A stretch of DNA of 64,000 nucleotides from a virus: positions 1 through 64,000 of the IMG/VR virus record IMGVR_UViG_3300037427_000542, one strand, 5' to 3'. Shown here piece after piece: positions 5,399-25,096 of the stretch. The position numbers and the translations under genes were made by a program. Each line of letters starts with the position of its first letter. Within the stretch, counting starts at the first letter, position 1. A model generated the notes under the pieces. The model was not told the origin of the DNA and searched no databases. It saw nothing but the letters and a program-made list of their open reading frames with translations.

Positions 5399-5399
5399 T

Positions 5400-7074: not shown

Positions 7075-7084
7075 TAGAAATCTG

Positions 7085-7098
7085 TATAAATATAAATA
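7085..7098 (+). promoter_or_regulatory. Two overlapping late promoters TATAAATATAAATA (gp22)
   Basis: TATAAATA at 7085 and 7091. Confidence 0.8.
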
Positions 7099-7145
7099 GT
7101 TTATTAGATTATATTAAAATTAAATAATCCTAAGAGGAGAGTAAC

Positions 7146-8420: not shown

Positions 8421-8426
8421 CATTTT

Positions 8427-8434
8427 TATAAATA
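8427..8434 (+). promoter_or_regulatory. Late promoter TATAAATA (gp23)
   Basis: Exact consensus upstream of major capsid gene. Confidence 0.85.
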
Positions 8435-8479
8435 ATTAGGTTATAGAAATAACAAACAAAGTAAAACAAGGAGAAACTG

Positions 8480-9745
8480 ATGTATCTTTCAGAAGAACTA
8501 CAAAATAAGTGGAGCCCAGTTCTTGAACATCCTGAACTCAATGAGATCAAGGACCCGTACAAGAAGGCGGTAACCACAGTAGTACTCGAAAACCAAGAGA
8601 AGGCTCTTCGTGAAGAAAAAGAAGCTCTTTTCGAGGCTACACATGCTAACCAAACAGGTGCAAGCGTTGACAACTACGATCCTATATTGATCTCACTAGT
8701 TAGACGTGCTTTACCTAACCTTATGGCTTACGATGTTTGTGGAGTACAACCAATGTCTGGACCAACTGGTCTAATCTTTGCAATGAAATCTCATTTCACC
8801 AGTCAAACTGGCGCTGAGGCTTTATTCAACGAAGCAGACACTGATTTCTCAGGTGCAGGTACACATGCTGGAGCTAATCCAGTAGACGGTACTTACACTA
8901 CAGGAAACGGGGTATCTACAAGCACTGCAGAAGGTTTTGGAGACTCAACTACACTAAATGAAATGGCTTTCTCAATCGAGAAAACAACTGTTACTGCTAA
9001 GTCCAGAGCGTTAAAAGCTCAGTACACAGTAGAACTAGCACAAGACTTGAAAGCTGTTCATGGTTTAGATGCGGAATCCGAACTTTCCAATATTCTTTCT
9101 CAAGAAATTCTTGCAGAAATTAATCGTGAAGTTATTAGAACTATCTACAAAGTAGCAAAAACTGGTTCTGCCAGCACAGCTACTGCCGGAACATTTGACT
9201 TAGATGTCGACAGTAACGGAAGATGGTCCGTAGAAAGATTTAAAGGTCTTTTATTTAATATCGAGCGTGATGCTAATGTCATCGCACAAGACACAAGGCG
9301 TGGTAAAGGTAACTTCATCATCTGTTCATCAGATGTTGCTAGTGCTCTTTCAATGTCAGGTGTACTTGACTATGCTCCAGCATTATCAACTAATTTAAAT
9401 GTTGATGACACAGGTAATACATTTGCTGGCGTACTTAACGGTCGTTATAAAGTATACATTGACCCATATTCTGCAAATACAGGAGCTGCTAGCCAGTTCT
9501 ATGTATGTGGTTATAAAGGCACAAGCCCTTATGACGCAGGTCTATTCTACTGTCCGTATGTTCCACTACAAATGGTAAGGGCAATTGACCCTGCTACATT
9601 CCAGCCAAAAATTGGTTTCAAAACCAGGTATGGCATGATAGCTAACCCATTCGTAATGCAGTCAGACGGCACTACAGATGGAGACACATTTACAGCAGAC
9701 AGAAACCAATACTACAGAAGTGTAAAAGTTTCTAACTTAATGTAA
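8480..9745 (+). CDS. gp23: Major capsid protein
   Basis: KWSPVLEH, LISLVRRALPNL.AYDVCGVQPMSGPTGLIFAM, KSRALKA.Y..ELAQDLKAVHGLDAE, FQPKIGFKTRYG. Confidence 0.98.
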   Translation: MYLSEELQNKWSPVLEHPELNEIKDPYKKAVTTVVLENQEKALREEKEALFEATHANQTGASVDNYDPILISLVRRALPNLMAYDVCGVQPMSGPTGLIFAMKSHFTSQTGAEALFNEADTDFSGAGTHAGANPVDGTYTTGNGVSTSTAEGFGDSTTLNEMAFSIEKTTVTAKSRALKAQYTVELAQDLKAVHGLDAESELSNILSQEILAEINREVIRTIYKVAKTGSASTATAGTFDLDVDSNGRWSVERFKGLLFNIERDANVIAQDTRRGKGNFIICSSDVASALSMSGVLDYAPALSTNLNVDDTGNTFAGVLNGRYKVYIDPYSANTGAASQFYVCGYKGTSPYDAGLFYCPYVPLQMVRAIDPATFQPKIGFKTRYGMIANPFVMQSDGTTDGDTFTADRNQYYRSVKVSNLM

Positions 9746-11088: not shown

Positions 11089-11669
11089 CAACAACCAATA
11101 TTACGAATGTTTCAGAAGCATCGTGGAGTAATGCTAACCCAAATGAGTTAGACTATTTGCGTCCTAACGCATTTAAATTTCAGATACATAACATTCCTAA
11201 TACAAGTTACTTCTGTAACGCTGCTAACATACCAGAAATGAATTTGCCACCTGCAATTCAACCCAATCCTTTAGTAGATATAGGACACCCAGGCGATAAA
11301 ATAGAATTTGGTACTTTAATGATACGATTCCTCATACAAGAGGACATGAAAAATTATAAAGAACTATATGATTGGATGGTAGGCCTAGGTTTCCCTAAAG
11401 ACAGCAAGCAATTTGCAGAATATACAAAAACACAAAACTATAGGTTCCCAGATATATCACCTGAGAGCTCACAAGGGTTAGGACAGTATAGTGATGCTAC
11501 ACTTACCCTATTAGATTCAAACAACAACGCAAAAGTGGTAATTAGTTTCGTCGATGCTTTCCCTACAAGTTTACAGGGTTTGGATTTTGAGATAGTAACA
11601 GGCAGTACAGATTATATGATGGGTGTTGCTATGTTTAAGTACTCATTATTTGAAATCGAAGTCTTATAA
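11085..11669 (+). CDS. gp3: Tail completion / tube terminator protein
   Basis: YLRPNAFKF, ANIPE, F.IQEDMKNYKELYDWM, SDATL, DAFPTSL; precedes uvsY. Confidence 0.85.
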   Translation: MTTTNITNVSEASWSNANPNELDYLRPNAFKFQIHNIPNTSYFCNAANIPEMNLPPAIQPNPLVDIGHPGDKIEFGTLMIRFLIQEDMKNYKELYDWMVGLGFPKDSKQFAEYTKTQNYRFPDISPESSQGLGQYSDATLTLLDSNNNAKVVISFVDAFPTSLQGLDFEIVTGSTDYMMGVAMFKYSLFEIEVL

Positions 11670-11691
11670 TACCAAAAGGTACAATAACTAG

Positions 11692-11720
11692 TTGACTCTT
11701 ACATAGCAAGAGTCTATAAT
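11692..11720 (+). promoter_or_regulatory. Sigma70-type promoter with spacer dyad (uvsY)
   Basis: TTGACT-CTTACATAGCAAGAGTC-TATAAT, 17-bp spacer. Confidence 0.85.
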
Positions 11721-11729
11721 GTATATATT

Positions 11730-12173
11730 ATGATAACTCTAAAAGAACTACAAGACATGTGGCAAGAAGACTGTAAGGTTGATGAACTTAACCTTGGACA
11801 GGAGTCTACACGCATACCAGAACTACATTCTAAGTATCTTAACCATTTATCTACACTAAGACTACAATGTCGCAGATCCCAAAGTGAATTATTTAAAATG
11901 AGAAGGCTGAAGTGGAAGTATTATCGAGGTGAGTTAGATCAAAAGGAATTGAATGAAAGAGGCTGGGATCAGTACTTAGGTAACGCTCCTCTTAATAATC
12001 AGATGAATGAGTTCTTAGACACAGACGAAGATGTTATTAAATTAACCGATAAATTGGAGTATTTAAACACTTGTTTGACCCTGTGTGAGAGTGTTATGAA
12101 GTCGATTTCTAGTCGTTCTTTTGATATTAAAAACGCAATTGAATGGACTAAGTTTACAAACGGGTCTTACTAG
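11730..12173 (+). CDS. uvsY: Recombination mediator UvsY
   Basis: IPELHSKYL, WKYYRGE, R.FDIKNAIEW.KF; upstream of uvsW. Confidence 0.9.
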   Translation: MITLKELQDMWQEDCKVDELNLGQESTRIPELHSKYLNHLSTLRLQCRRSQSELFKMRRLKWKYYRGELDQKELNERGWDQYLGNAPLNNQMNEFLDTDEDVIKLTDKLEYLNTCLTLCESVMKSISSRSFDIKNAIEWTKFTNGSY

Positions 12174-12210: not shown

Positions 12211-13677
12211 TTGATCAAGGTTTCTAAAAAAGACGAAGTACATATTAGTGTAGATACAGATCCAAGTACTGCACAAGAGATATGTGACTTCTTTACTTTT
12301 GAAATACCTGGTGCCAAGTTTATGCCTCTATACAAGAAGAAAGTATGGGACGGCAAAGCAAGATTGTTTAATATATACAACCGAGAATTATACATAGGTC
12401 TTTTGCCTTACTTGAAAGAGTTTGCAGAAACCTTAGAGTATAATATAGAAGTAAACATGCCTGACATAGGCGAAACCATAGACATAGATAGATTTACTAA
12501 TGAATTGAGGTTACAATCCAATGGAAAACAAATCGAAATTAGAGATTATCAGAAAGAAGCGGTTACAAAGGCAATTAATGTTGGGAGAACTCTCCTCTTA
12601 TCTCCAACTGCTTCTGGGAAGTCTCTTATTATTTATAGCCTTATCCGTTATCACCAACTGAAAGGTAGAAAGCAACTAGTAATTGTGCCTACTACATCTT
12701 TGGTAGAACAAATGTATGGAGACTTTCAGGACTATGCTACGGCAGACACTTGGCAAGTAACAGAAAATTGTCATAGGATATATGGTGGTAAAGAAAAAAC
12801 AAATGAATATCCTATAACAATAAGTACATGGCAATCTATATACAAGTATCCTAAAAAATGGTTTGAACAATTTGAAGTAGTATATGGAGATGAGGCACAC
12901 TTGTTTAAAGCAAAATCATTAACAACATTAATGAACAAGCTTACAAACACACCTTTTAGAATAGGAACAACAGGTACATTAGATGGAACTAAGACACATA
13001 GGCTTGTACTAGAAGGTGTGTTTGGACAAGTACACAAGGTTACAACTACTAAAAAATTAATGGACGATAAGCAACTAGCCACATTAAAAATTTTATGTTG
13101 TATGATTAACTGGAAGGACGCACATAGAAAAGAAGTAAAGGGTATGACTTACCAAGAAGAAATAGATTGGATAGTAACACACCCAGATCGTAATGAAATT
13201 ATAAGAAAATTAACTGTTGCACAAGACGGTAACACACTTGTTCTATTTCAATTTGTAGAAAAGCATGGTACAGTATTACATGAAATGATAAGCAAAACAG
13301 TTAAAGAAAACAGAAAAGTATTCTTTGTATATGGTGGCACAGATACAGAGGTAAGAGAAGAAATAAGAGCTATTACAGAAACACAAAACGATGCTATCAT
13401 CATTGCCTCATACGGCACATTTTCAACGGGTATAAATATAAGGAACCTTCATAATATTGTGTTTGCCTCGCCTAGTAAGAGTAGAATAAGAAACTTACAG
13501 AGTATAGGACGAGGACTTCGTAAAGGAGAGAACAAAGTATCATGTAATCTTTTTGATATTGGTGATGATTTAGCGTGGAAGTCTAAAAAGAATTACACAC
13601 TTAACCACTTAATAGAGAGGATCAAGATTTATAACGAAGAAGGTTTCGATTATAAACTTGTTAAATTAGATGTCTGA
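12211..13677 (+). CDS. uvsW: SF2 DNA helicase UvsW
   Basis: RDYQ, SPTASGKS, GDEAHLFKA, GTTGTL, ASYGTFSTGINI, LQSIGRGLR; TTG start with GGAG SD. Confidence 0.96.
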   Translation: MIKVSKKDEVHISVDTDPSTAQEICDFFTFEIPGAKFMPLYKKKVWDGKARLFNIYNRELYIGLLPYLKEFAETLEYNIEVNMPDIGETIDIDRFTNELRLQSNGKQIEIRDYQKEAVTKAINVGRTLLLSPTASGKSLIIYSLIRYHQLKGRKQLVIVPTTSLVEQMYGDFQDYATADTWQVTENCHRIYGGKEKTNEYPITISTWQSIYKYPKKWFEQFEVVYGDEAHLFKAKSLTTLMNKLTNTPFRIGTTGTLDGTKTHRLVLEGVFGQVHKVTTTKKLMDDKQLATLKILCCMINWKDAHRKEVKGMTYQEEIDWIVTHPDRNEIIRKLTVAQDGNTLVLFQFVEKHGTVLHEMISKTVKENRKVFFVYGGTDTEVREEIRAITETQNDAIIIASYGTFSTGINIRNLHNIVFASPSKSRIRNLQSIGRGLRKGENKVSCNLFDIGDDLAWKSKKNYTLNHLIERIKIYNEEGFDYKLVKLDV

Positions 13678-14053
13678 TATAAGCATATTAAAATTAATGG
13701 ACGGCACTACAATCGTAGGCAGACTAACACAAGACGGAGATCTTGTAGAAATAGAACATCCAATAGAATTGGTGTCTAATATAACACCTGTTGGAAATAT
13801 ATTAGGTGAGCAAGTAAGTTTAAGACCTTATGTTGCTATAGCACAAGAACATATTTTTACTATAGAAAGATATAATGTTATTAATATATCTACTCTACAG
13901 GAAAATTTTGTTGACGGCTATGAAAGAATGGTAGAAAATATTTATTTCAGAGAACAACAATGGGACGGTGACTTAATGTCAGAGGAACCAGACTTAGATA
14001 TAGATACAATGACAGAACTTGCAGATGCAATTATAAAGAAACAAATACATTAG
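13670..14053 (+). CDS. Conserved hypothetical protein (Sm-like fold, uvsW-gp55 interval)
   Basis: ILKLMDGTTIVG N-terminus; typical position. Confidence 0.6.
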   Translation: MSDISILKLMDGTTIVGRLTQDGDLVEIEHPIELVSNITPVGNILGEQVSLRPYVAIAQEHIFTIERYNVINISTLQENFVDGYERMVENIYFREQQWDGDLMSEEPDLDIDTMTELADAIIKKQIH

Positions 14054-14062
14054 GAGTATATT

Positions 14063-14668
14063 ATGGCAAAAAGACGTGACCCTAACTCGGCACACTATAT
14101 AGACAACAAGGAGTTCCTTGTAAAGATTAGTGCTTACCGAGAGGAAAGAATTGAAGCAGAAGAGAGTGGAGATGAAAGACCACAAGTAACAAATTATATA
14201 GGCGAGTGCTTTGTTAAAATAGCAAATCATTTAGCATATAAATCTAACTTTGTAAACTATACATTTAGAGATGAAATGATTTTAGATGGTATTGAAAACT
14301 GTCTTACATATATGGATAACTTTGATCCAGCAAAATCTAAAAATCCTTTTGCATACTTTACACAAATCACATACTACGCTTTCATTAGGCGTATCCAAAA
14401 AGAAAAAAGACAAATGGAAACTAAGTTCAAATATATTAAGAGCTTAGATATAGATCAAATCTTAGAACAAAGCGCAGACGGAAGTGAACACTCTAATGAT
14501 TACCTAAGTTATATGAGAGGCATGATTGAGCAAGCAGAGGCAGATAATGCTAAAGCTGACGCAGCTAACGCAGGTAAAAAGATGCCTAAGCGTAGACCTA
14601 AATACTTAGATGAAAAAATTAAGGCAGAGGAAGCAGCAGCTAAGGCAGAGGAAGATGCGAAAAGCTAG
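14063..14668 (+). CDS. gp55: Late transcription sigma factor
   Basis: HYIDNKEF, YIGECF.KIA, NFVNYTFRDEMI.DGIENC, NPFAYFTQI.YYAFIRRIQKEK. Confidence 0.96.
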   Translation: MAKRRDPNSAHYIDNKEFLVKISAYREERIEAEESGDERPQVTNYIGECFVKIANHLAYKSNFVNYTFRDEMILDGIENCLTYMDNFDPAKSKNPFAYFTQITYYAFIRRIQKEKRQMETKFKYIKSLDIDQILEQSADGSEHSNDYLSYMRGMIEQAEADNAKADAANAGKKMPKRRPKYLDEKIKAEEAAAKAEEDAKS

Positions 14669-15224
14669 TAAAGATATAAAAGGATTTTATGAGTGGGACT
14701 TTACAGACATTGTTGCTGAACTTCCTGACAAAGGTAAACTTATAGAAATAGGTTCTTATGTAGGCAAGTCTGCGGTATCTTGGGCTGAAGCATTTGAAAA
14801 GGCAGGTAAGGATTATACTATACATTGTGTTGAAGTATTTGTAGGTATAGGTAATACAGGTAGAGCTTCAGTAATGAATGAAGAATTAAAAACATTTCTG
14901 GATAGTTTAATGTGTACTGCTGAAGAACAAGAACAACAGTTTATAGAGAATACAAAGGGCTGGAATATAACATACGAAAAGAAACACTTTACAGAAGATT
15001 TTGAATTGGCAGAGGAGTATACAGTACTATGGTATGATGCTAATCATTCAGAACAATCTGTAACAACAGCAATTAATTATTGGCAGGACAAAGTACAAAC
15101 AATGGTTATTGATTGTTATGATACGGTTCATCCAGAGACTATGACAGCAATAGATACATCTGGTTTAAACTTTAAACTATTTGAATTTAACAAGGGAACA
15201 AAGGGGATAGCATTATTTGGTTGA
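14655..15224 (+). CDS. Class I SAM-dependent methyltransferase (Methyltransf_24-like)
   Basis: LIEIGSYVGKSA motif I and WYDANHS motif. Confidence 0.7.
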   Translation: MRKASKDIKGFYEWDFTDIVAELPDKGKLIEIGSYVGKSAVSWAEAFEKAGKDYTIHCVEVFVGIGNTGRASVMNEELKTFLDSLMCTAEEQEQQFIENTKGWNITYEKKHFTEDFELAEEYTVLWYDANHSEQSVTTAINYWQDKVQTMVIDCYDTVHPETMTAIDTSGLNFKLFEFNKGTKGIALFG

Positions 15225-15290: not shown

Positions 15291-16169
15291 ATGAAACTGA
15301 GATACAGCGAAGCATTTTATAGCATACAAGGCGAAGGTAGATTTGTAGGAGTACCTAGTGTATTCTTAAGAGTCTTTGGCTGTAACTTTGAATGCGCTGG
15401 TTTCGGACAAGAGCGTGGCAAGTATATTGCTACAGACCAAATGCCTTATATGACAGATCCTAAAGGCGATAAAAATCACCCAGAAGCTTATAAAGATATT
15501 TCAGAACTGCCTGTCACGCCTGTAGGTTGTGATAGTTCTGCTTCTTGGGCTATGAAATATAAACATTTACAAATGACTAAGACTGTTGATGAGGTATATG
15601 AACACATTATAAGTCTTTTACCTAATGGAAGATTTGATGAGAAGAATGATATACATTTGGTTATTACAGGTGGAGAACCTTTACTCGGTTGGCAAAGAGT
15701 ATGGCCTGAATTAATTAAAATGTGTATGGAAGTAGGTTTGACTAATGTAACATTTGAAACTAATGGAACACAATTAATTAAACCTGAACTAGCAAACTTC
15801 TTTAATGAAAATTATAAGGGTATACATGTAACTTGGAGTACATCTCCTAAGTTAAGTCTTAGTGGTGAGAAGAATGAAGATGCTTTAATACCTGACGCAC
15901 TTGTTACAATGAACCAGGTTGTTAATTCTCACTTGTATAATAAATTTGTCGTTAGAGACATAACAGACTTCGAAGAAGTTGATAAGTTTTATCTAACTTA
16001 TCAGAAAAGTGGCGTACAAATAGATGCTGTTTACTGTATGCCAGAAGGCGCTACACTAGAACAACAAACACTAACTGCTAAAGGCGTAGCAGAGGCTTGT
16101 ATGAAAACAGGATACAAGTTTAGCCCTCGATTACATATCGATTTATTTGGCAACGCTTGGGGTACATGA
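15291..16169 (+). CDS. queE: 7-carboxy-7-deazaguanine synthase (radical SAM)
   Basis: SEAFYSIQGEGRFVGVPSVFLRVFGCNFEC...CDS, VITGGEP, FETNGT, SPK, SPRLHIDLFGN. Confidence 0.93.
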   Translation: MKLRYSEAFYSIQGEGRFVGVPSVFLRVFGCNFECAGFGQERGKYIATDQMPYMTDPKGDKNHPEAYKDISELPVTPVGCDSSASWAMKYKHLQMTKTVDEVYEHIISLLPNGRFDEKNDIHLVITGGEPLLGWQRVWPELIKMCMEVGLTNVTFETNGTQLIKPELANFFNENYKGIHVTWSTSPKLSLSGEKNEDALIPDALVTMNQVVNSHLYNKFVVRDITDFEEVDKFYLTYQKSGVQIDAVYCMPEGATLEQQTLTAKGVAEACMKTGYKFSPRLHIDLFGNAWGT

Positions 16170-16378
16170 TGAAATGGAAACAAATTAAAGAAACATTATG
16201 GGGACAAAATCCTCAGCAAGAAATTGATACTTGGAAAGATCCAGATCCAGATGATGTAACAATAGATAATGCTTACAAAACAAGATGGATTTGGTACCAT
16301 ACAATCCTAGCAGTAGAATTATTTCTAGTAGTTATTATTCAACTGTTAATACTATTTTTATTGGCGGTAAAACTATGA
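16166..16378 (+). CDS. Small membrane protein
   Basis: C-terminal hydrophobic helix ILAVELFLVVIIQLLILFLLAV; ATGA overlaps at both ends. Confidence 0.65.
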   Translation: MMKWKQIKETLWGQNPQQEIDTWKDPDPDDVTIDNAYKTRWIWYHTILAVELFLVVIIQLLILFLLAVKL

Positions 16379-16800
16379 CAGGTGACGCAACAAAACTTTA
16401 TATATCGTGGGAAGATGTTAATGAATTAGTCTTTAAATTATTTAAAGAGTTAGGAAAACAAGATATAGACAAAGTGGTAGGCATATCAAGAGGTGGATTA
16501 ATACCTGGTGTTATGCTTTCACATTGGCTAGGCGCTGGCTTTGAACCACTTGAATGGCAAACTAGAGATGGTGAGTTTCAAGATAAGATTAAAGCTAACG
16601 GATTCAACAAAAATTTAAAGGGCACTATTTTTGTTGATGATATATGTGATAGTGCCTTAACAATAAAACAGATCAAGGAAATTATTCCAAACAGCAGGTG
16701 GGCTGTATTACACCAAAAAGCAGACATAGAGCTTGACTTTGTAGGCGAAAGACTGCATAATAACGACAAAAGATGGATAGTTTACCCTTGGGAAACATAA
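16375..16800 (+). CDS. Purine phosphoribosyltransferase (Gpt-like)
   Basis: VGISRGGLIPG, PRPP-binding IFVDDICDS, C-terminal WIVYPWE. Confidence 0.88.
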   Translation: MTGDATKLYISWEDVNELVFKLFKELGKQDIDKVVGISRGGLIPGVMLSHWLGAGFEPLEWQTRDGEFQDKIKANGFNKNLKGTIFVDDICDSALTIKQIKEIIPNSRWAVLHQKADIELDFVGERLHNNDKRWIVYPWET

Positions 16801-16818: not shown

Positions 16819-17499
16819 ATGATTAGTGAAGAGATAAAAGCTAGGTTACTAGAAACAGGACAAAGATTCCATGCGTCTGATAATATATCAGATGTTCTAG
16901 AGCCAGGCGATAAAGATAAATTGATTGATGAATTGGCTGGCAAGTTCCATGATGTTCTAAAGTCATTAGTAATAGATGTAGAAGGCGACCCTAACAGTAT
17001 AGACACTGGTAGGCGTATGGCAAAAATGTATATAAACGAAATTATGTCAGGTAGATATAATAAAATGCCAGACCCTAACAGTTTTCCTAACTATGTAGAA
17101 GATGGTTATGAAGGTATGTTGGTTGTGAGAAGTGAATTGAAAAGTGTATGTTCTCATCATCACCAAGCAGTTCGAGGCACAGCATACATAGGACTTATTG
17201 CAGGAGATAAACTATTAGGTCTAAGTAAGTACACAAGGATTGCACAATGGTGTGCTATGCGTGGTACATTACAAGAAGAACTTAATGTTATGATCGCTAA
17301 TAAGATACAAGAACATACAGGCGCTGAACATGTAGGTGTTTATGTACAAGCAACGCATGGTTGTTGTGAGAACAGAGGCATTAAGGCACATAGTTCCTTA
17401 ACACAGACAACTGTATTAAGAGGCGGATTTAAAAATTCAGACTTGAAGAAAGAATTTTTCGATAACATTAAATTACAACAAGAGTTTGCACCAAGATAA
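16819..17499 (+). CDS. folE: GTP cyclohydrolase I
   Basis: R.AKMY, SVCSHHH, GLSKYTRI, LQEEL, HGCCENRG. Confidence 0.94.
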   Translation: MISEEIKARLLETGQRFHASDNISDVLEPGDKDKLIDELAGKFHDVLKSLVIDVEGDPNSIDTGRRMAKMYINEIMSGRYNKMPDPNSFPNYVEDGYEGMLVVRSELKSVCSHHHQAVRGTAYIGLIAGDKLLGLSKYTRIAQWCAMRGTLQEELNVMIANKIQEHTGAEHVGVYVQATHGCCENRGIKAHSSLTQTTVLRGGFKNSDLKKEFFDNIKLQQEFAPR

Positions 17500-18008
17500 T
17501 GAATATTAATGGTAAACATGTAGTCGTTGATTTAGAAACACTTAGTACACATGCAGATGCATGTATTGTTTCTATTGGTGCAGTGCTTATTGACAACTTA
17601 GAAATCTCAGATACATTTTATATTAATGTTGATGGTAGAACTTGTAAAGAAGCAGGACTACATATAGAACCTGATACAATAAAATGGTGGGGCGAACAAA
17701 GTAAAGAGGCACAAGAAGCTTGGCAAAAGAATCCTGTTCCATTACAAGAAGCAATTGATAAATTTACATTATGGTATGGCAAAGAGTCTATTCCTATTTG
17801 GGGGTACGGTGCTAACTTTGATGTAGTAATATTAGAGAGTGCTTATAGAGCCTTGAACATGCCTTTCCCTTGGAAGTTCTGGGACATCTCTTGTTTAAGA
17901 ACAATAATGAATGTCTTAGATAAAAGATTACCTAAGGCAAACAATCACAATGCGTTAGATGATGCTACGGCAGAGGCGAAAGTATTAATTGAGATATTAA
18001 AATCATGA
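17499..18008 (+). CDS. DEDDh 3'-5' exonuclease (DexA/Rv2179c-like)
   Basis: VVDLETL, WGYGANFDVVIL, HNALDDA. Confidence 0.85.
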   Translation: MNINGKHVVVDLETLSTHADACIVSIGAVLIDNLEISDTFYINVDGRTCKEAGLHIEPDTIKWWGEQSKEAQEAWQKNPVPLQEAIDKFTLWYGKESIPIWGYGANFDVVILESAYRALNMPFPWKFWDISCLRTIMNVLDKRLPKANNHNALDDATAEAKVLIEILKS

Positions 18009-19273
18009 GTAGAAAATTAGATTATGTAGTTTCAGGCACAAGTTATATGAGGTTTAGTAACCCAGGTATAGCTAAAGACGAAACGAATTCAAGCATTATT
18101 AATGTGCTTATAGACAAGCTGGTAACAGATGTTCACAGTCATAAATTTAGTATGTTATATAACGGACATACAGAGTCCAGCTTTGGAGATAGATTTACAG
18201 CATATAAGGATCATGTACATGAGATACATGCAGACTCAGGTGGACTACAAATTGTTACTCAAGGTATGACTATTACAGATGAATTAAAAGATAAAGTATA
18301 TGAGAACCAGGCAAAGTGGGCTGATGTAGGTATGTGCTTTGATGAGATACCTGTAGTCCTTACAGGAGATAGATCAGATAGAAACGATACAAAAGCTAGG
18401 TTCTTTGACTTTGAAAATTATGAAGAACTAGCTCGTAAGACAGGTAGAAATGTTAAACGACAATTAGAAATATTTGAAAAGAATGATAGTAAGTGTAAAC
18501 CTTATATTATCCTACAAGGTAATTGTGTTGATACATATCTTAGATGGTATGAACTTCTAATGGAGGAAGTACCTGCAGAATGGCATGATAGAATTGGTGG
18601 TGTAGCAATGGGAGCAGCAGCTCTAGGCACAGGTCCACTTGAAGATGTTAAACGAGCCTTTATTGCTAGTGAGATTGCTAAGGTATGGCCACAAGAAACT
18701 ATGCACCTACATGTATTAGGAGTAGGTAGTATTAGGCGTATGATTCCTTATCTAGTCTTTTGTCAGAACGGTTTGTATGACAATGTAGAAATATCTTATG
18801 ACTCTACTACACATAGCAGGGCGGTTGAGACAGGTTTATACTACATGGGACAAGGCACAACTAAGTTCAGTAGAAAAATGTCTAATTTGTATCGAGAAAT
18901 GTACGATAATGTGCAGGAAACGATCCAATTAGGCGTAGAATTAGACGAATTTCACACCATTATGAACACACCTAGCATGAAGGCAAAAGAGAAATATGGC
19001 AATTTAAACAAATGGATCTATGTTAGAACAGCATTTATCCTTATGTCCATTAGAAACTTTATGGGGCATCTAGAACAGATGATGAATGACAAAGAAACCT
19101 TATTGAAGTTTACGGGTAAGATGAAACTTGACGGACAGTTCAGGAACCTCTATAATGTAACTAATCGTGAGCAGTTTGATGCTTGGGAAAATAACCAGTA
19201 CTTAGGTGGTAGTATGAAATCAATGGCAGTAGGCACAGAAGCACCTAGTAGTTTAGAGGACTTATTTGAATGA
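18005..19273 (+). CDS. dpdA: TGT-fold 7-deazaguanine transglycosylase, DpdA-like
   Basis: HADSGGLQ, FDEIP, ILQG, GGVAMG, HLHVLGVG, SYDST match the order of TGT catalytic motifs; lies among folE/queD/queE. Confidence 0.78.
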   Translation: MSRKLDYVVSGTSYMRFSNPGIAKDETNSSIINVLIDKLVTDVHSHKFSMLYNGHTESSFGDRFTAYKDHVHEIHADSGGLQIVTQGMTITDELKDKVYENQAKWADVGMCFDEIPVVLTGDRSDRNDTKARFFDFENYEELARKTGRNVKRQLEIFEKNDSKCKPYIILQGNCVDTYLRWYELLMEEVPAEWHDRIGGVAMGAAALGTGPLEDVKRAFIASEIAKVWPQETMHLHVLGVGSIRRMIPYLVFCQNGLYDNVEISYDSTTHSRAVETGLYYMGQGTTKFSRKMSNLYREMYDNVQETIQLGVELDEFHTIMNTPSMKAKEKYGNLNKWIYVRTAFILMSIRNFMGHLEQMMNDKETLLKFTGKMKLDGQFRNLYNVTNREQFDAWENNQYLGGSMKSMAVGTEAPSSLEDLFE

Positions 19274-19836
19274 ATATATTTTTACTTAATGAAAATCCAT
19301 TGTTGTGTGCAGAACAACATTGTGATAAACATGTTGTTAAAATGGTAATTGAATATGCACAGCTTATGTCTACAGCACATAGGTACTTAGACGGAGAATT
19401 ATATGGAGAGCTTACAGACAAAGGTAGAAAAATTAAAAGGTGGCGACATCCAAACTCTAACATGGAGTCTACTTTATACAAGGCCAGTCATGTCAACCAT
19501 CCAGATGGTTTGTGGGTTAGAAATAGTAATGCCAATTACGATTATCTATATGATCTATGGTTTAAATTATGTAAAGAATATACTCACAGGTATGGTAGGT
19601 TACACTTAACACAAGAAAAATTAGAACACTTACTTAGGTATGCACCTAAGAATATTCCACATGCTGATACAGCAGATGTAAAAGGCTTGCCACTAGCAAT
19701 GCCTGATGATGTAAAAGGTGAGAGTGTAGTCAACTCTTATCGTAGGTATTACAACAAATATAAAATTGACTTTGCTAAATATACAAACAGAGAGGAACCA
19801 ACATGGCTAACAAGGCATACCGTAAACGCTATATAA
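19270..19836 (+). CDS. Pyrimidine-dimer DNA glycosylase-like protein (DenV-related family)
   Basis: MNIF.L...P..CA..HCDKHVVKM..E.AQL.STAH, YK.SH.NHP, EYTHRYG..H. Confidence 0.72.
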   Translation: MNIFLLNENPLLCAEQHCDKHVVKMVIEYAQLMSTAHRYLDGELYGELTDKGRKIKRWRHPNSNMESTLYKASHVNHPDGLWVRNSNANYDYLYDLWFKLCKEYTHRYGRLHLTQEKLEHLLRYAPKNIPHADTADVKGLPLAMPDDVKGESVVNSYRRYYNKYKIDFAKYTNREEPTWLTRHTVNAI

Positions 19837-20198
19837 AAGTAAGCTTTCAGAAAGAAGGAGTACACTTCTTCCCTGGAGCAGATACAAATCCTAAATATGC
19901 TACAGGCGATTGGGATGATGTTAGCTTCTTAGGATATCCTCATAGGCACATGTTCCATTTCTATATTACATTAGGAGTTACACATAACGATCGTGATGTA
20001 GAGTTCATACAATTTAAGCGTGAACTAGAAAGAACTTTTGATCAAGGTGTAATTAAACTAGACCACCAATCATGTGAAATGATTGGCGAATCACTTATAA
20101 ATTATATAGAAGAGAAGTATCCTAACAGAGCTGTTAGAGTTGAAGTATTTGAGGATAATGAAAACGGAGGCATCATAGAAAATGATTTATTTAGTTGA
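19803..20198 (+). CDS. dpdL: QueD-paralogous T-fold protein, DpdL-like (putative CDG decarboxylase)
   Basis: LGYPHRHMF fits the LxxxHRHxF signature recalled for DpdL; also DRDVEFI, SCEMI, V.EDNENG. Confidence 0.7.
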   Translation: MANKAYRKRYIKVSFQKEGVHFFPGADTNPKYATGDWDDVSFLGYPHRHMFHFYITLGVTHNDRDVEFIQFKRELERTFDQGVIKLDHQSCEMIGESLINYIEEKYPNRAVRVEVFEDNENGGIIENDLFS

Positions 20199-21255
20199 TT
20201 TAGAATATGTAGAAACTAGATATACTGCCCAATGGAAAACAGAATTCCCTCAGCAAATAGCAGATGAGACTGGACAAGACATTACAGTTATTGAAGGTCC
20301 AGAAGAAATAGCAGCATGCACAACACCAGGTGCTTTTTTAAACTTTGCAGGCACAAACATTTATAAAGCAGAACAAGTAAAATTGTTAGCAGAGTACTTT
20401 AATAATAATCAGATTAAGAATGGAGATCACTTTGTTTTTGCAGACGCTTGGCATCCAGGTATAATTAATCTTAAATATATGTTAGATCTATTTCAGATAG
20501 ATGCAACAATACATGCACTATGGCATGCAGGCAGTTATGATCCACAAGATTTTTTAGGTAGAAAGATAGGCAATAAACCTTGGGTTAGACATACAGAATT
20601 AGCTTTCTTCGATGCTATAGATAAAAATTATTTTGCTAGTAATTTTCATATAGAAATGTTTGCTAGTACATTCTTTAATCCTTCAGACGAAGAATATATT
20701 AATAGTAAAATTGTTAGAACAGGCTGGCCTATGGAGTACTTAGGTAACTACATACAAGCAGGTAGAATAGAAAAAGACAATATTATTTTATTCCCTCACA
20801 GAGATGCACCTGAGAAACAACTAAGTATATTTAAAGATTTAGAAAAAGAATTACCACAATATAAATGGATTAATTGTAACGAATATAATTTAACTAAGGT
20901 TGAATATAATCAGTTACTTGAACAATCCAAGATGGTATTCTCAGCAAACTTACAAGAAACATTAGGCATTAGCTGTTATGAAATACTAATGGCAGGAGGT
21001 ATGCCTCTTGTTCCTAATAGACTATCTTATGTAGAAATGTATGAGGATATATTTAAGTACCCTACGCAATTTACAAAAGACTGGAAAGGATATCAAGACA
21101 ATAAAAGTATTCTATTAGGCAAGATAGAAACAATGATGGAAAATTTTAATTCACCTGAAATACAAGGTGCAATTAAGAGTAATAGAGACACGCTGAAGAC
21201 ACAATACTTCTCGGCAACAAACATATATCAGGAGTTAATGAATGAGAAAATTTAA
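20182..21255 (+). CDS. GT-B fold glycosyltransferase (GT4-like)
   Basis: ILFPHR..PEK and C-terminal ETLGISCYE (E-x7-E), PLVPNRLSY.E. Confidence 0.8.
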   Translation: MIYLVDLEYVETRYTAQWKTEFPQQIADETGQDITVIEGPEEIAACTTPGAFLNFAGTNIYKAEQVKLLAEYFNNNQIKNGDHFVFADAWHPGIINLKYMLDLFQIDATIHALWHAGSYDPQDFLGRKIGNKPWVRHTELAFFDAIDKNYFASNFHIEMFASTFFNPSDEEYINSKIVRTGWPMEYLGNYIQAGRIEKDNIILFPHRDAPEKQLSIFKDLEKELPQYKWINCNEYNLTKVEYNQLLEQSKMVFSANLQETLGISCYEILMAGGMPLVPNRLSYVEMYEDIFKYPTQFTKDWKGYQDNKSILLGKIETMMENFNSPEIQGAIKSNRDTLKTQYFSATNIYQELMNEKI

Positions 21256-21697
21256 ATATTTATCTACAAAAACATATGGACATGAGGAAGGCTTATCATG
21301 TGTATTTAGACAACCCTTGGCCTTACATAGTCATTGCAGTTTATTACATGGATATGCTTTATCTTTTAGTTTTAAGTTTGGTTGTGAGAAATTAGACGAC
21401 AAGAATTGGGTAGTAGATTTTGGCAACTTAAAGGAATTAAAAAAGTGGTTGAAAGATTCTTTTGATCACAAACATGCAGTAGCAAAAGACGATCCTGAGA
21501 TGGGAACATTTCTTAAACTAGAAGAACAAGGATTGTCAGAAGTAGTAGTAATGAATGGTGTTGGTTGTGAGAAATTTGCAGAACAAGCATTTCATTATGC
21601 AGATGAATTAGTAAGTAACTTGACAGACGGCAGATGTTATGCTGTCTCATGTGAAGTTAGGGAACACGGGGCTAACAGCGCTATATACGAGGGCTAA
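21242..21697 (+). CDS. queD: 6-carboxy-5,6,7,8-tetrahydropterin synthase
   Basis: HCSLLHGY, NWVVDFG, FDH, GCEKFAE, EVREHGANSA. Confidence 0.9.
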   Translation: MRKFKYLSTKTYGHEEGLSCVFRQPLALHSHCSLLHGYALSFSFKFGCEKLDDKNWVVDFGNLKELKKWLKDSFDHKHAVAKDDPEMGTFLKLEEQGLSEVVVMNGVGCEKFAEQAFHYADELVSNLTDGRCYAVSCEVREHGANSAIYEG

Positions 21698-21700
21698 CTT

Positions 21701-22762
21701 ATGAAAGTAGCTCTAGTTACAGACACCCATTTTGGTGCCAGAAGTGATAGTCTAGCTTTCGATGCTTACTTTGCTAAGTTTTATGACGAAACATTCTTTC
21801 CTTATTTAAAAGAACATGATATTAAAACTGTATGCCACTTGGGTGACATATTTGATAGACGAAAGTATATAAATTTTAATACATTGAAGTCCTGTAAAAG
21901 ATACTTCTTTAAACAGGCAGAGGATTTAGGTATAGACATACACATGATTCCAGGTAATCATGATACCTATTTTAAAAATACAAATGATGTAAACAGCCCT
22001 GACTTATTGTTAGGAGAATATAACAACATAACATTATATCAGGAACCAACAGAAATAATGTTAGATAGAGAGAAGGTACTTTACCTTCCATGGATATGTG
22101 GTGAGAATTATGACAGGACTATGGCCAAAATTAAAGAATCTGACGCAAAGACTTGCTTCGGACATTTCGAGTTCGCAGGTTACTTCCTTCTTCCTGGAAT
22201 GCCTAATCTCCATGGCATGGATACTGACGCTTTTGTTGACTTTGATCTTGTGGTCAGTGGCCATTTCCATCATCGCCATAGCAGAGGGAATATTACATAT
22301 ATGGGCAACCCTTATGAAATCACTTGGTCTGACTATAAAGACCCTAGAGGTTTCGCCATATATGACACGGTTAAAAGAGATTTGGAGTACATCAACAACC
22401 CGTTTAGAATCTTCCACAAGATTTATTACGACGATTCAGATTTCGAGGGGAGCAATGCCATTAGCAATTTTGATTTTACTAGTGTCGTTGGTTCTAATGT
22501 TAAACTAATTGTAAATAAAAAGACAGACTATAAAAAGTTTGATGTCTTTGTAGACAAATTATACACATGCAATCTAATTGATCTAAAAATTATTGAAGAC
22601 TTCTCAGAGTTTGAGGATGAGGCATTGGGTGAGGAAATAGATCTAGAAGATACAATGACATTGCTAAAAGAATATGTTGATGTTGTTGAAACAGATTTAG
22701 ACAAACAACGAATTAAAAATTTACTACAGAGCCTATACATCGAGGCACAAGATACAGTATGA
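21701..22762 (+). CDS. gp47: Recombination endonuclease subunit (Mre11-like)
   Basis: TDTHFG, HLGDIFDRRK, GNHD, FGHFE, SGHFHHR. Confidence 0.96.
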   Translation: MKVALVTDTHFGARSDSLAFDAYFAKFYDETFFPYLKEHDIKTVCHLGDIFDRRKYINFNTLKSCKRYFFKQAEDLGIDIHMIPGNHDTYFKNTNDVNSPDLLLGEYNNITLYQEPTEIMLDREKVLYLPWICGENYDRTMAKIKESDAKTCFGHFEFAGYFLLPGMPNLHGMDTDAFVDFDLVVSGHFHHRHSRGNITYMGNPYEITWSDYKDPRGFAIYDTVKRDLEYINNPFRIFHKIYYDDSDFEGSNAISNFDFTSVVGSNVKLIVNKKTDYKKFDVFVDKLYTCNLIDLKIIEDFSEFEDEALGEEIDLEDTMTLLKEYVDVVETDLDKQRIKNLLQSLYIEAQDTV

Positions 22763-24456
22763 TACAATTTAAAAATATTAAATGGAAAAATTTCCTGTCG
22801 ACTGGTAATGCTTATACAGAGATTGATTTTACAAAGTCTCCTAGTACATTAATTATAGGTGAGAACGGTTCAGGTAAATCTACATTATTAGATGCTTTGA
22901 CATTTGCATTATTTAATAAACCTTTTAGGAATGTATCTAAGCCCCAACTTATTAATACTATTAATGGCAAGAATTGTTTAGTAGAAATAGCATTTAGTAT
23001 AGGCACAAAGAACTATACTATTAAGAGAGGACTACAACCTAGAGTATTTGATATTACAATTAATGGAGACTTGTTAGATAAGAATGCTAACATAAGAGAC
23101 TTCCAAAAATATCTAGAAGAGAATATTCTAAAACTTAATTACAAGTCTTTTACACAAATTGTTATGTTAGGTAGTGCCTCATTTACACCTTTCATGCAGT
23201 TACACTTGGGTGCTAGGCGAGAGATTATTGAGGATATATTAGACATCAGTATCTTTACAAGCATGAATGCTGTACTTAAAGGCAAGCTTACACAATTAGA
23301 AAACGATAAAAGAATTATAGAAGGTGAGATAGATGTTGCAAAACAAAAGTGTAATCTTCAAGAAACATATATAAAAACATTGGAGGATGATAAATCATCT
23401 AAAGTCACACAGATCTTAAAAGACATTAAGGAGACTGATAATGCGATCGAGACGGCTACTGAAGAAGCTCAGCGATTCGGGAAGGAGAAGCAGGAGGTTG
23501 GTCCTGTTAGCGAAAAGAAAAGAAAACTTGAAGAATTTAGAAGCAAGTTCGAAAGTCAAATTGCCAACCACAGAAAAGAACTAGAGTTCTTCCACAACAA
23601 TGAAGAGTGTCCTACTTGCCAGCAAGGCATAGAACACGATCACAAAGATTTAATGACACAAAGAGATGAACAAAAAATCTCTGAACTTGAAACAGCTCTA
23701 GAAGAACTGAATACGAAGTATAGCGAGGTAGAAGTATTAGTACAAAAGGTTCAAGAGTTAGATGAAAAGATAATAGAAACAAACAATGAAGTCATTACAC
23801 AACAAAGAATACAACAGCGCCTACAGTTAGAACTTAGTGATACAGAACACAAGACAGGCAACATTAAAGATGAGAAAACAAAACTTAAAACTCTAGCAAA
23901 GAGTACACTTAAAAAGGTTGAAAGTAGAAGTGAACTAAGCAACAACGAACATTATTTTAATGTTGCTAAGTCTATGTTACAGGATACCGGAATCAAGACA
24001 AAGATTATAAAAGCATATCTACCTATAATAAATAAATTAGTTAACAAATATTTAGCAGCAATGGATTTCTTTGTTCAGTTTGATTTAGACGAAACATTTA
24101 AAGAAACTATTAAGAGTAGAGGCAGAGATAAATTTAGTTACGCATCTTTTAGTGAAGGTGAAAAACAAAGAATAGATTTAGCATTAGTTTTTACATGGAG
24201 AACTATTGCTAAGATGAAGAACAGCGCTAGTACAAATATTTTATTATTAGATGAAGTGTTTGATAGTAGTTTAGATGTTAATGGTACAGACTATGTTATG
24301 GAATTGTTGAACACAATAGGCGAAGATACAAATGTCTTTGTAATCTCGCACAAGGGTGATCAACTATTTGACAAGTTTAGATCTGTAGTTAGATTTGAAA
24401 AAAGACAAAACTATTCTGTATTAGAGAATAGGAAAAAAGAAAATGAAATACACTGA
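22759..24456 (+). CDS. gp46: Recombination ATPase subunit (Rad50-like)
   Basis: KNFLSTGN, GENGSGKST, zinc hook CPTCQQ, FSEGEKQRIDLA, LDEVFDSSLD, VISHK. Confidence 0.96.
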   Translation: MIQFKNIKWKNFLSTGNAYTEIDFTKSPSTLIIGENGSGKSTLLDALTFALFNKPFRNVSKPQLINTINGKNCLVEIAFSIGTKNYTIKRGLQPRVFDITINGDLLDKNANIRDFQKYLEENILKLNYKSFTQIVMLGSASFTPFMQLHLGARREIIEDILDISIFTSMNAVLKGKLTQLENDKRIIEGEIDVAKQKCNLQETYIKTLEDDKSSKVTQILKDIKETDNAIETATEEAQRFGKEKQEVGPVSEKKRKLEEFRSKFESQIANHRKELEFFHNNEECPTCQQGIEHDHKDLMTQRDEQKISELETALEELNTKYSEVEVLVQKVQELDEKIIETNNEVITQQRIQQRLQLELSDTEHKTGNIKDEKTKLKTLAKSTLKKVESRSELSNNEHYFNVAKSMLQDTGIKTKIIKAYLPIINKLVNKYLAAMDFFVQFDLDETFKETIKSRGRDKFSYASFSEGEKQRIDLALVFTWRTIAKMKNSASTNILLLDEVFDSSLDVNGTDYVMELLNTIGEDTNVFVISHKGDQLFDKFRSVVRFEKRQNYSVLENRKKENEIH

Positions 24457-25096
24457 ACAATTTGCCAAACACGAATACTTAACAGACAAATGCTGGCCAC
24501 ATACATATGGTCCTAAGATTTATGATGACTTGTTTGAACCTATACAACATACAGTTAGAAATTATTTAGAGTTAGGCTCTGCTTATGGTGGGTCTGCTTT
24601 ATTAGCTAGAGATTATTTTACTAGGGCTACAGTATGGACAGTAGATATTGTTAGTCCTAATAGAAGAATACAATCCTCAGATAGAATTATTACATTACAA
24701 GCAGACGCATATCAAAAACGAATAGCTGATATGTTTCCACCTGACATGGATATTATTATTGATGATGCCTCACATAATATAGAGCATCAACAAAAAGCAA
24801 TTGAATTATATCTTTCTAAACTAACAGTAGGTGGACATTTTATTATAGAAGATGTAGAGTCTCCAACAAACTCTTTTAAATTGTTTGATAAAAAAGTAGA
24901 CGAGGTTTATAACAAATTAAAGACTCGAGGTAATATGTATCTTGACTATGAAGTATCTACATACGAAGGCCCAGAGTACTATGCTAATGTAAAACCTGGA
25001 AGAGAAGAACAAGCAGAAGAAGAAATGAAAGAGTATGGTGAGTTAAGACTAAAAGCAAAGAATGATAACTTATACATTGTAAAGAGAAAAGTATGA
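24443..25096 (+). CDS. SAM-dependent O-methyltransferase-like protein
   Basis: YLELGSAYGGS, DIIIDDASH, GGHFIIEDV. Confidence 0.75.
   Translation: MKYTEQFAKHEYLTDKCWPHTYGPKIYDDLFEPIQHTVRNYLELGSAYGGSALLARDYFTRATVWTVDIVSPNRRIQSSDRIITLQADAYQKRIADMFPPDMDIIIDDASHNIEHQQKAIELYLSKLTVGGHFIIEDVESPTNSFKLFDKKVDEVYNKLKTRGNMYLDYEVSTYEGPEYYANVKPGREEQAEEEMKEYGELRLKAKNDNLYIVKRKV

Follow-up and report, generated by a model that had tools for sequence, protein, structure and literature searches.

A GT4-like glycosyltransferase tied to phage deazaguanine genes, a candidate enzyme for sugar-bearing 7-deazaguanine in DNA

The virus record IMGVR_UViG_3300037427_000542 (83.6 kb, estimated to be 51% complete), which belongs to a marine T4-like phage, was analysed over its positions 1-64,000; this whole stretch of 64,000 nucleotides is referred to as the window. 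It contains a cluster of deazaguanine genes, in which a glycosyltransferase (GT) gene lies at 20182-21255, downstream of genes for a DpdA-type DNA guanine transglycosylase and for DpdL, a T-fold protein paralogous to QueD. The best explanation of this gene, to which we give an even chance of being right, is that it encodes an active, retaining-type (GT4-like) nucleotide-sugar transferase, acting as a dedicated tailoring enzyme of the deazaguanine module. Belief and doubt are likewise evenly balanced on the proposal that the enzyme puts a sugar on a 7-deazaguanine that ends up in packaged phage DNA. Deazaguanine modification of DNA is the known part of this system, and the added glycosylation step is the new one. 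The predicted fold of the GT, the conservation of its catalytic motif and its strict linkage to deazaguanine genes are documented directly by the data reported here.

An AlphaFold2 model of the GT, based on an alignment of 45 homologues, was obtained with high confidence values (pLDDT 95.3, pTM 0.92), and contains the two Rossmann-like domains typical of the GT-B fold. When the model was compared with the PDB by using Foldseek, 461 matches were obtained at E<=0.001, with GT4 enzymes at the top (BshA, BA1558, MshA, PimA and PglA). The best match was BshA (6d9t, E 1.2e-10), with the leading GT4 matches reaching 1.3e-8 and TM values of about 0.6-0.66. The GT-B fold, which an earlier note made from the sequence of this DNA had assigned to 20182-21255, is therefore borne out.

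GT4 enzymes are marked by an E-x7-E motif in the C-terminal domain, together with basic residues that bind the diphosphate. The motif is present in the window GT as E259-x7-E267; over the 45 homologues, which range from 25 to 86% identity, E267 is invariant, while E259, R207 and K212 are conserved in at least 90% of the sequences. BshA, MshA and PimA share with the GT the fold and the E-x7-E motif, at a sequence identity of 9-14%, and are set apart from it by family-specific motifs of its N-terminal domain, ETRYT.QW and HAGSYDP.DFLGR. Residues 115-127 form the HAGSYDPQDFLGR motif, in which G117 is invariant, and H115, A116, D120, D123 and L125 are conserved in at least 90% of the homologues. 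In general, the N-terminal half, expected to bind the acceptor, is conserved as much as the donor half. Judged from sequence and model, the enzyme looks catalytically competent.

Sequence searches placed the protein at the margin of known families. The Pfam model PF00534 (Glycos_transf_1) scored 15.5 bits (E 0.013) against a gathering threshold of 26.4, which was not passed; a precomputed match to it exists for a few close homologues, and the homologue from Synechococcus phage BUCT-ZZ01 passes, with 26.5 bits. No PHROG family was found for the GT, and sequence comparison with the PDB revealed no relative (best E 0.6). Among the matches listed in a search of viral structure models (top 50), the close ones were a protein of phage ACP17 (TM 0.89) and one other. 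The family is large: at least 8000 proteins match at E<=1e-3, clustering at 50% identity gives 1068 groups, and members are encoded on at least 588 IMG/VR contigs. A search for fused forms revealed no homologue of 626-2000 amino acids, which is weak evidence. A complex prediction for GT and DpdL, run without controls, gave a score of 0.00, which counts neither way.

The association of the GT with deazaguanine genes was evaluated in isolated phages, metagenomic contigs and bacterial genomes. By tblastn, the GT was found in 22 phage records. In 17 of them the match covers at least 78% of the query (11 PA5oct-like phages, one record of Phosso, two of ACP17, and X1, BUDD and BCSR5), and all 17 are among the 28 records in which DpdL was found. 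In the phages inspected (Phosso, PA5oct, ACP17, X1 and BCSR5), the GT lies within a folE/queE cluster and adjoins a small DpdL, a DpdA-type gene or both; gene order around it differs between isolate lineages. Profile comparison added the GT of BUCT-ZZ01 (hhalign 99.6%, E 3.2e-24; profile search 8.5e-31), located in a cluster of the order QueE-XGPRT-x-QueD-FolE-GT2-DpdA-DpdL-GT-exonuclease. This cluster (L115) encodes two glycosyltransferases, at 4370-5713 and 7361-8527, one on either side of DpdA-DpdL, which hints at a two-sugar modification. The five weaker matches, with 63% coverage, form the PhiXhv-12 group, where the neighbours of the GT are instead GlmS-like and BshB-like deacetylase genes.

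A sample of 104 IMG/VR loci, searched iteratively with the proteins of the window, divides as follows.

Marine lineage: 34 loci, DpdL in 33, DpdA-like protein in 30
PA5oct-like group: 66 loci, DpdL in 63, DpdA-like protein in 56
Group with 26% identity: 4 loci, DpdL in 3, DpdA-like protein in 4

In every locus missing a DpdL or a DpdA-like match, the GT lies so near the beginning of the contig (within 2.8 kb) that the partner gene would be cut off. Homologues of the GT occurring mostly apart from deazaguanine genes, the outcome that would have spoken against the earlier note, were not what the 104 phage loci revealed: they favour linkage. Taken with the isolates and the bacterial loci described below, they sustain its view of the GT as part of the deazaguanine pathway rather than an accidental neighbour.

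According to the list of open reading frames, nine abutting or overlapping genes run along the plus strand of the window, between a late sigma factor gene upstream and SbcD/SbcC genes downstream. The families, assigned by using Pfam, PHROGs and NCBIfam, or by the analyses described in the text, are as follows.

14063-14668, plus strand: late sigma factor, T4 gp55-like (phrog_234, E 6.9e-58); upstream boundary marker, outside the module
15291-16169, plus strand: QueE, 7-carboxy-7-deazaguanine synthase, radical SAM (phrog_2076, E 1.7e-52; Pfam Fer4_12, E 5.1e-5)
16285-16800, plus strand: type I phosphoribosyltransferase (PRTase), xanthine/guanine-PRTase-like (PF00156, E 1.6e-5, 24.7 bits, cut-off 26.3)
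16819-17499, plus strand: FolE, GTP cyclohydrolase I (PF01227, E 1.5e-35)
17499-18008, plus strand: Rv2179c-like 3'-5' exonuclease (PF16473, E 5.4e-40)
18005-19273, plus strand: DpdA-type DNA guanine transglycosylase, KVP40/Moby-type, 422 amino acids, with a C-terminal extension (phrog_10773, E 6.6e-97)
19270-19836, plus strand: T4 endoV-like (pyrimidine-dimer-glycosylase-like) gene (PF03013, E 3.4e-4, below cut-off; phrog_624, E 1.6e-52)
19803-20198, plus strand: DpdL, QueD-paralogous T-fold protein, 131 amino acids (LxxxHRHxF motif, homology, AlphaFold2 model)
20182-21255, plus strand: GT4-like GT-B glycosyltransferase, 357 amino acids (AlphaFold2 model, Foldseek, E-x7-E motif)
21242-21697, plus strand: QueD, 6-carboxytetrahydropterin synthase, 151 amino acids (Pfam PTPS, E 1.8e-13; phrog_2389, E 2.1e-37)
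21701-24456, plus strand: SbcD-/SbcC-like, T4 gp47/gp46-like (phrog_100, E 1.3e-115; phrog_77, E 4.4e-164); downstream boundary, outside the module

The overlaps at both ends of the GT gene, pointed out in the earlier note, were confirmed at the level of single codons. The T-fold gene, closed by a TGA at 20196-20198, overlaps the GT gene by 17 nt, and the ATG of the GT gene, at 20182, is preceded by a GGAGG at 20166-20170. The GT gene, closed by a TAA at 21253-21255, overlaps queD by 14 nt, and the ATG of queD, at 21242, is preceded by an AGGAG at 21231-21235. The 17-nt overlap between DpdL and GT is kept in all eight marine-lineage relatives for which both coordinates are listed (L008, L013, L017, L018, L021, L022, L023 and L026; GT match from 10001, DpdL reading frame ending at 10017). 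Promoter and terminator scans of the window gave results at chance level, with 49 promoter-like sites against 47.0 expected, so that co-transcription of the cluster is deduced from the gene overlaps only. Base composition is even across the window, and a megablast search of the phage collection with the segment 15000-23000 found no match.

Other genes of the run recur to various extents. queE is kept in the clusters of relatives, and the exonuclease gene is found in 27 of the 34 marine-lineage loci, as well as in the BUCT-ZZ01 cluster. The textbook motif of QueD is CxxxHGH; the QueD of the window carries CSLLHGY at residue 32, a CxxxHGY variant. Of the 47 QueD proteins in the fetched loci, 39 have this variant, among them that of phage phiST, whose pathway works.

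The small T-fold protein was identified as DpdL by the sequence LGYPHRHMF at residues 43-51. This fits the LxxxHRHxF signature which, in the available sections of PMC10516641, is given as the DpdL replacement of the CxxxHGH of QueD. By tblastn, it matched the DpdL of ACP17 (E 4e-28) and of phiST (E 5e-8). Its AlphaFold2 model (pLDDT 93.0) is closest to E. coli QueD (4ntk, E 2.8e-4, TM 0.61-0.66), followed by PTPS; a profile search of the PDB returned only chance bacterioferritin matches, at E>0.3. Comparison of 13 DpdL sequences, from seven GT-bearing and six GT-less isolate lineages, revealed 14 invariant residues, including H21, H47, H49, F51, H61, R64, E67, C91, E92 and E117, and no conserved position separating the two sets. 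There is accordingly no sign that the T-fold enzyme does different chemistry beside a GT, as the earlier note had supposed. The role of DpdL as a decarboxylase of 7-carboxy-7-deazaguanine (CDG) is a proposal of Hutinet and colleagues, whose heterologous tests failed, according to the same sections of PMC10516641. In Vibrio phage Bakedbeans (L116:6221-7372) and Chryseobacterium phage MA9V-3 (L119:6431-7312), DpdL forms the C-terminal part of proteins of 383 and 293 amino acids, whose N-terminal extensions gave no family match and no relation to proteins of the cluster.

What differs between GT-bearing and GT-less lineages is the type of DpdA. By tblastn, the DpdA of the window matched over residues 5-305, with 34-36% identity, the DpdA proteins of KVP40-like phages and of Stenotrophomonas phage Moby; some of these are annotated as queuine tRNA-ribosyltransferase, and the Moby record gives an HHpred match to tRNA-guanine transglycosylase (TGT). 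No Pfam match was found for the window protein, and its profile retrieved no PDB sequence. A DSGG sequence and a catalytic Asp are motifs of the transglycosylases of the TGT superfamily, and D-S-G-G is present in 35 of the 36 members of the window DpdA family. In the PA5oct-like group, a 510-amino acid protein is a distant relative of DpdA (hhalign 91.5%, E 8.5e-7); DSGG is found in 106 of the 110 best DpdA-like matches to the iterated profile of this protein, considering all fetched loci.

Isolate lineages bearing DpdL divide evenly into six with the GT (PA5oct, ACP17, Phosso, X1, BCSR5, BUCT-ZZ01) and six without. In the latter (phiST-like phages, MA9V-3, RHph_I1_18, Ahp1, D479 and Bakedbeans), a GT profile search was negative, while ACP17, BCSR5 and BUCT-ZZ01 served as positive controls. 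A phiST-type DpdA3 is present in all six GT-less lineages and in no GT-bearing locus; the GT-bearing lineages carry either a KVP40/Moby-type DpdA or the 510-amino acid type. A single-sequence search for phiST-type DpdA3 in eight GT-bearing genomes was also negative, a weak result, as it missed the known positive Ahp1. The same slot is filled differently in related arrangements, which amounts to a natural swap: QueC-DpdA-QueE in Moby, DpdA-GT-DpdL-QueE in ACP17, and GT-DpdA-DpdL-QueE in X1. The C-terminal extension of DpdA was considered as a GT-specific feature and rejected, since Pseudomonas phage pf16 has a long DpdA with no GT or DpdL nearby. In the deazaguanine cluster of Moby (L125:3505-4755), an inositol-3-phosphate synthase is annotated between folE and queC.

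In order to extend the comparison to bacteria, one genome per species was scanned, and 38 loci of the GT family were found. In 21 of them only the nucleotide-sugar (C-terminal) half is matched and none of the pathway genes is present; these are generic GT4 relatives. The remaining 17 match the GT over its full length, with 35-51% identity, and are rich in partners: a DpdA-like gene lies beside the GT in 13, DpdL is present in 8, and a YhhQ/Vut_1-like membrane protein in 11. The latter is encoded directly upstream of the GT, has 4-6 hydrophobic segments and matches Pfam Vut_1 (PF02592, E 2.2e-6), a family which we take to be queuosine-precursor transporters. The 11 loci with the complete trio (L131-L140, L142) are chromosomal and belong to Pelagibacterium, Ochrobactrum, Devosia, Azospirillum, a Rhizobiales isolate, Sulfitobacter, Roseobacter and Methylobacterium.

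A whole-genome profile search for DpdL found none in Pelagibacterium, Ochrobactrum and Devosia, three of the five genomes examined; in the two positive controls, Roseobacter has one copy about 10 kb away and Methylobacterium has two. Since these three genomes carry GT and DpdA-like genes without DpdL, the GT has no need of DpdL, and its constant partner is a DpdA-type transglycosylase. The tight functional pairing of T-fold protein and GT put forward in the earlier note must therefore be given up. What accepts the sugar is probably the core of 7-deazaguanine, and not one particular group at position 7.

The bacterial Dpd system (dpdA-K, Salmonella Montevideo) also acts from a genomic island, with DpdA writing 7-deazaguanine into the cell's own DNA. 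The alphaproteobacterial islands differ in consisting of DpdA-like, YhhQ-like and GT genes, and in their annotated 8-kb flanks no DpdB or DpdC was seen. They may represent an undescribed modification-based defence system. In the Ochrobactrum locus (L134:635-2548, 12555-13817), a GmrSD-type restriction enzyme and an integrase are found beside the three-gene island, and an 864-amino acid protein of no known family is encoded in five of the alphaproteobacterial island loci.

The following pathway is proposed for the phages. FolE, QueD and QueE would make CDG from GTP, by a route that is well established, and DpdL would convert CDG to 7-deazaguanine. The DpdA-type transglycosylase would then exchange guanine for 7-deazaguanine in phage DNA after replication; base exchange in DNA is the established activity of the DpdA family. 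The GT would move a sugar from a host nucleotide sugar onto the deazaguanine, with the 2-amino group or position 7 or 8 as candidate attachment sites, so that packaged DNA would carry a sugar-bearing 7-deazaguanine. In the boldest form of this proposal, DpdA would insert a base already carrying its sugar. The modification would likely give phage DNA added protection against restriction and against deazaguanine-directed defences, and in bacteria with the island it may label the cell's own DNA as self. Among the phages covered by the proposal are T4-like myoviruses abundant in the ocean, a cyanophage from fresh water, and jumbo phages, both PA5oct-like and others. That glycosylated 7-deazaguanine occurs in packaged phage DNA and that the same mark is placed on chromosomes of Alphaproteobacteria by a mobile three-gene island, as a self label, is a joint claim that we hold more tentatively, a little short of even confidence.

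Two experimental reports bear on the proposal. In the parts of the preprint PMC12191111 available to us, PA5oct DNA is described as resistant to five restriction enzymes, and its authors suspect a modified G, which they did not identify. In the available sections of Hutinet 2023 (PMC10516641), the modification was not reconstituted by ACP17 DpdL and DpdA on their own. Neither a glycosylated deazaguanine in DNA nor this GT family was found described in the full-text literature searched, the supplements of Hutinet 2023 excepted; within this scope, the statement of the earlier note that no glycosylated 7-deazaguanine is known in phage DNA stands.

Several considerations weigh against placing the sugar in DNA. 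The acceptor of the GT is one that we infer, and so are the sugar, the attachment site and the timing relative to insertion. 7-deazaguanine has no hydroxyl or amine at position 7, and a sugar in the major groove would need C-glycosylation, for which we know of no GT4 enzyme. With the 2-amino group as the site, the sugar would occupy the minor groove, in which bulky substituents usually hinder polymerases; to our knowledge, all phage hypermodifications sit in the major groove. In the model comparison, the closest solved structures act on small molecules. The GT scores below the Pfam threshold, and it is acidic (pI 4.88, net charge -17; family median pI 5.5), which is atypical for a DNA-binding enzyme; charge was nonetheless rejected as a test for a DNA acceptor, as the DpdA (-11) and SbcD (-24) of the same phage are also acidic. 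If a QueC-like protein encoded outside the window, described below, acts on CDG, the base may differ from plain 7-deazaguanine. The failure of the ACP17 construct is itself ambiguous, as the phiST control failed too, according to the available sections of Hutinet 2023 (PMC10516641).

The lack of an attachment point had been raised in the earlier note, which reasoned that plain decarboxylation would remove the handle for a sugar. This holds for position 7, where no handle is left, and does not hold for the base as a whole, since the 2-amino group can take a sugar, as in huimycin and the dapiramicins. In the available text of PMC7439116 and bioRxiv 10.64898/2026.04.15.718813, huimycin is described as having a 7-deazapurine whose 2-amino group bears N-acetylglucosamine (GlcNAc), a step ascribed to the glycosyltransferase HuiG. 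Such a sugar provides a handle that is independent of position 7.

The same precedent underlies the alternative that the GT acts only on the free base (7-deazaguanine or CDG) in the cytoplasm, most simply at the 2-amino group, as HuiG does on a free 7-deazapurine in the parts of the huimycin and dapiramicin literature available. The product could be the true substrate of the large DpdA, an outcome that overlaps with the best explanation; it could be a transient or protected intermediate, with plain deoxy-7-deazaguanosine (dDG) in packaged DNA; or it could be a small molecule acting on the host. The small-molecule enzymes BshA and MshA as nearest solved folds, and the acidity of the protein, agree with this alternative. 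The GT covaries with the type of DpdA, DpdA3 of the phiST type being confined to the six GT-less lineages, and this suits an enzyme working on the free base no less than one working on DNA. In the bacterial trio, a base importer directly precedes the GT, and neither construct of Hutinet and colleagues gave dDG without further genes, according to the available sections of PMC10516641. For a sugar-bearing base to be inserted, however, the pocket of a TGT-family enzyme would have to take in the base with its whole sugar. The constant neighbour of the GT is a DNA-acting transglycosylase, located in a replication gene block, rather than an exporter or the genes for a nucleoside antibiotic, and the likeness to HuiG is one of description only. 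DpdA covariation and the adjacency of importer and GT lean towards the free base, while the analogy with T4 leans towards DNA; on the whole, we consider action on the free base only to be unlikely, yet the most serious of the alternatives.

An acceptor outside the pathway, such as a different DNA base, a phage or host protein or an envelope precursor, with the GT merely co-located and co-regulated, is improbable. GT4 acceptors are very diverse, and both the PhiXhv-12 group, with its GlmS-like and BshB-like neighbours, and the 21 half-matching bacterial loci are devoid of the deazaguanine context. Against this stand the linkage to DpdA across unrelated phages and bacteria despite changing gene order, the translational overlap, and the conservation of the acceptor half at the level of the donor half. 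The GT-fold protein might finally be a non-catalytic helper of DpdA, for instance a DNA- or base-binding stand-in for a DpdB-type protein, given that no DpdB-like ATPase is found near DpdA in the phage modules and that the GT always adjoins DpdA-like genes. We regard this as very improbable: E-x7-E, R207 and K212 are kept in an alignment of 45 homologues, some with as little as 25% identity, which is what an active GT4 enzyme should show.

Comparison with described systems helps to place the proposed sugar-bearing deazaguanine. T4 alpha- and beta-glucosyltransferases, which glucosylate hydroxymethylcytosine in DNA, are GT-B phage enzymes tailoring a modified DNA base after replication, and under the best explanation the window GT would work alike, on a purine analogue devoid of the hydroxymethyl handle. 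The comparison, made in the earlier note, is valid at the level of the GT-B fold and does not extend to a specific relationship: the nearest folds are GT4 enzymes, the T4 proteins are absent among the listed PDB matches and the top 50 viral models, and no Pfam match to the T4 glucosyltransferase family was found. Mannosyl- and galactosyl-queuosine of eukaryotic tRNA are cases of a 7-deazaguanine derivative that receives its sugar once it is part of a nucleic acid; the acceptor is tRNA and not DNA, and the sugar is attached to the cyclopentenediol of queuosine, a compound that these phages are unable to make.

Among the closest described systems is that of phiST (FolE, QueD, QueE, DpdL, DpdA3), which, in the available sections of PMC10516641, has the same precursor genes as the window and no canonical QueC in its cluster, and whose DNA holds plain dDG. 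Its DpdL belongs to the same family, with the same 14 invariant residues; in contrast to the window, with its GT and 422-amino acid KVP40/Moby-type DpdA, phiST has a small DpdA3 and no GT in a profile search. HuiG provides an example of a glycosyltransferase encoded in a FolE/QueD/QueE-type cluster, to which transfer of GlcNAc from UDP-GlcNAc to the 2-amino group of a 7-deazapurine is attributed. As compared by description in the available text of PMC7439116 and bioRxiv 10.64898/2026.04.15.718813, its pathway differs in belonging to actinomycete secondary metabolism, in including QueC and an O-methyltransferase, in having no DpdA, and in producing a free small molecule.

Should the proposal prove true, the product would be the first purine known to bear a sugar in any DNA, and a new class of DNA hypermodification; all sugar-bearing DNA bases known to us are pyrimidines. 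It would be widespread, with more than 1000 clusters at 50% identity and at least 588 viral contigs for the GT family, and would occur in culturable phages, including PA5oct, a subject of phage therapy research. The failure of ACP17 DpdL and DpdA, on their own, to reconstitute the modification would also be accounted for. GmrSD-type enzymes, deazaguanine-directed glycosylases and other modification-dependent defences would have new substrates defined for them, and purines in DNA could be furnished with sugars by a new enzymatic route.

The search for QueC concerned the identity of the base. None was found in the window cluster, by open reading frames, Pfam or PHROGs. Further along the record, at 71699-72370 and hence outside the window, a 223-amino acid QueC-like PP-loop protein is encoded between nrdA and nrdB. 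Its sequence contains the motif SGGFDS and, at the C-terminus, a cysteine cluster like that of QueC; it passes the Pfam QueC threshold with 36.8 bits, in an alignment limited to model positions 154-209. A near-complete marine relative (G001) also has a QueC-like PP-loop gene, and the only full-length phage relative in the phage collection is from Ralstonia phage RsoM2USA; a search with PF06508 gave no match in PA5oct, ACP17, Phosso, BCSR5 and a complete 364-kb relative. The protein may be a QueC, an unrelated protein, or an amide-forming relative of QueC, of the kind noted in the available text of bioRxiv 10.64898/2026.04.15.718813.

The genes lying near the module were evaluated as possible further components. 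The PRTase of the window also matches phrog_8995 (E 7.6e-28) and, below cut-off, the xanthine PRTase model NF006613 (E 1.8e-13); its true start is likely near 16369. It was rejected as an obligate partner of the GT: PF00156 is absent from four of five GT-bearing genomes (Phosso, ACP17, X1 and BCSR5) and present in BUCT-ZZ01, as well as in the GT-less phiST. A PRTase-like gene is also found in 45 of the 66 PA5oct-like loci. Our guess is that the enzyme may salvage the guanine released by DpdA base exchange, perhaps to replenish GTP, from which the pathway starts.

A protein of about 180-220 amino acids (L066:8668-9327 and homologues) is encoded directly upstream of DpdL in 62 of the 66 PA5oct-like loci, and also in ACP17. 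This 221-amino acid protein was rejected as a core part, being absent from the record of the window; nor is it encoded in the module-containing loci retrieved from PA5oct, Phosso, X1 and BCSR5. It gave no Pfam or NCBIfam match, and only one chance-level match to PHROGs (E 0.047). In L066, a 184-kb phage contig, the genes at 7021-8804, 11315-11785 and 13803-14201, which surround DpdL-GT, encode GFO/IDH/MocA and zinc-ADH-like oxidoreductases, a cytidylyltransferase-like protein and a HIT protein, which could make a special sugar donor. GFO_IDH_MocA, ADH_N and CTP_transf_like were rejected as core components, as each is found in 4-18 of the 66 related loci; the HIT gene, present in 29 of the 66, is the only common one of the set.

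The endoV-like gene is missing between dpdA and dpdL in several close relatives (L008, L022, L025) and is located elsewhere in L023; it behaves as a movable insert, not core to the module. Two methyltransferase-like genes, at 14610-15224 and 24443-25096 (Methyltransf_24, E 5.6e-8; PHROG methyltransferase, E 2.1e-9), flank the cluster.

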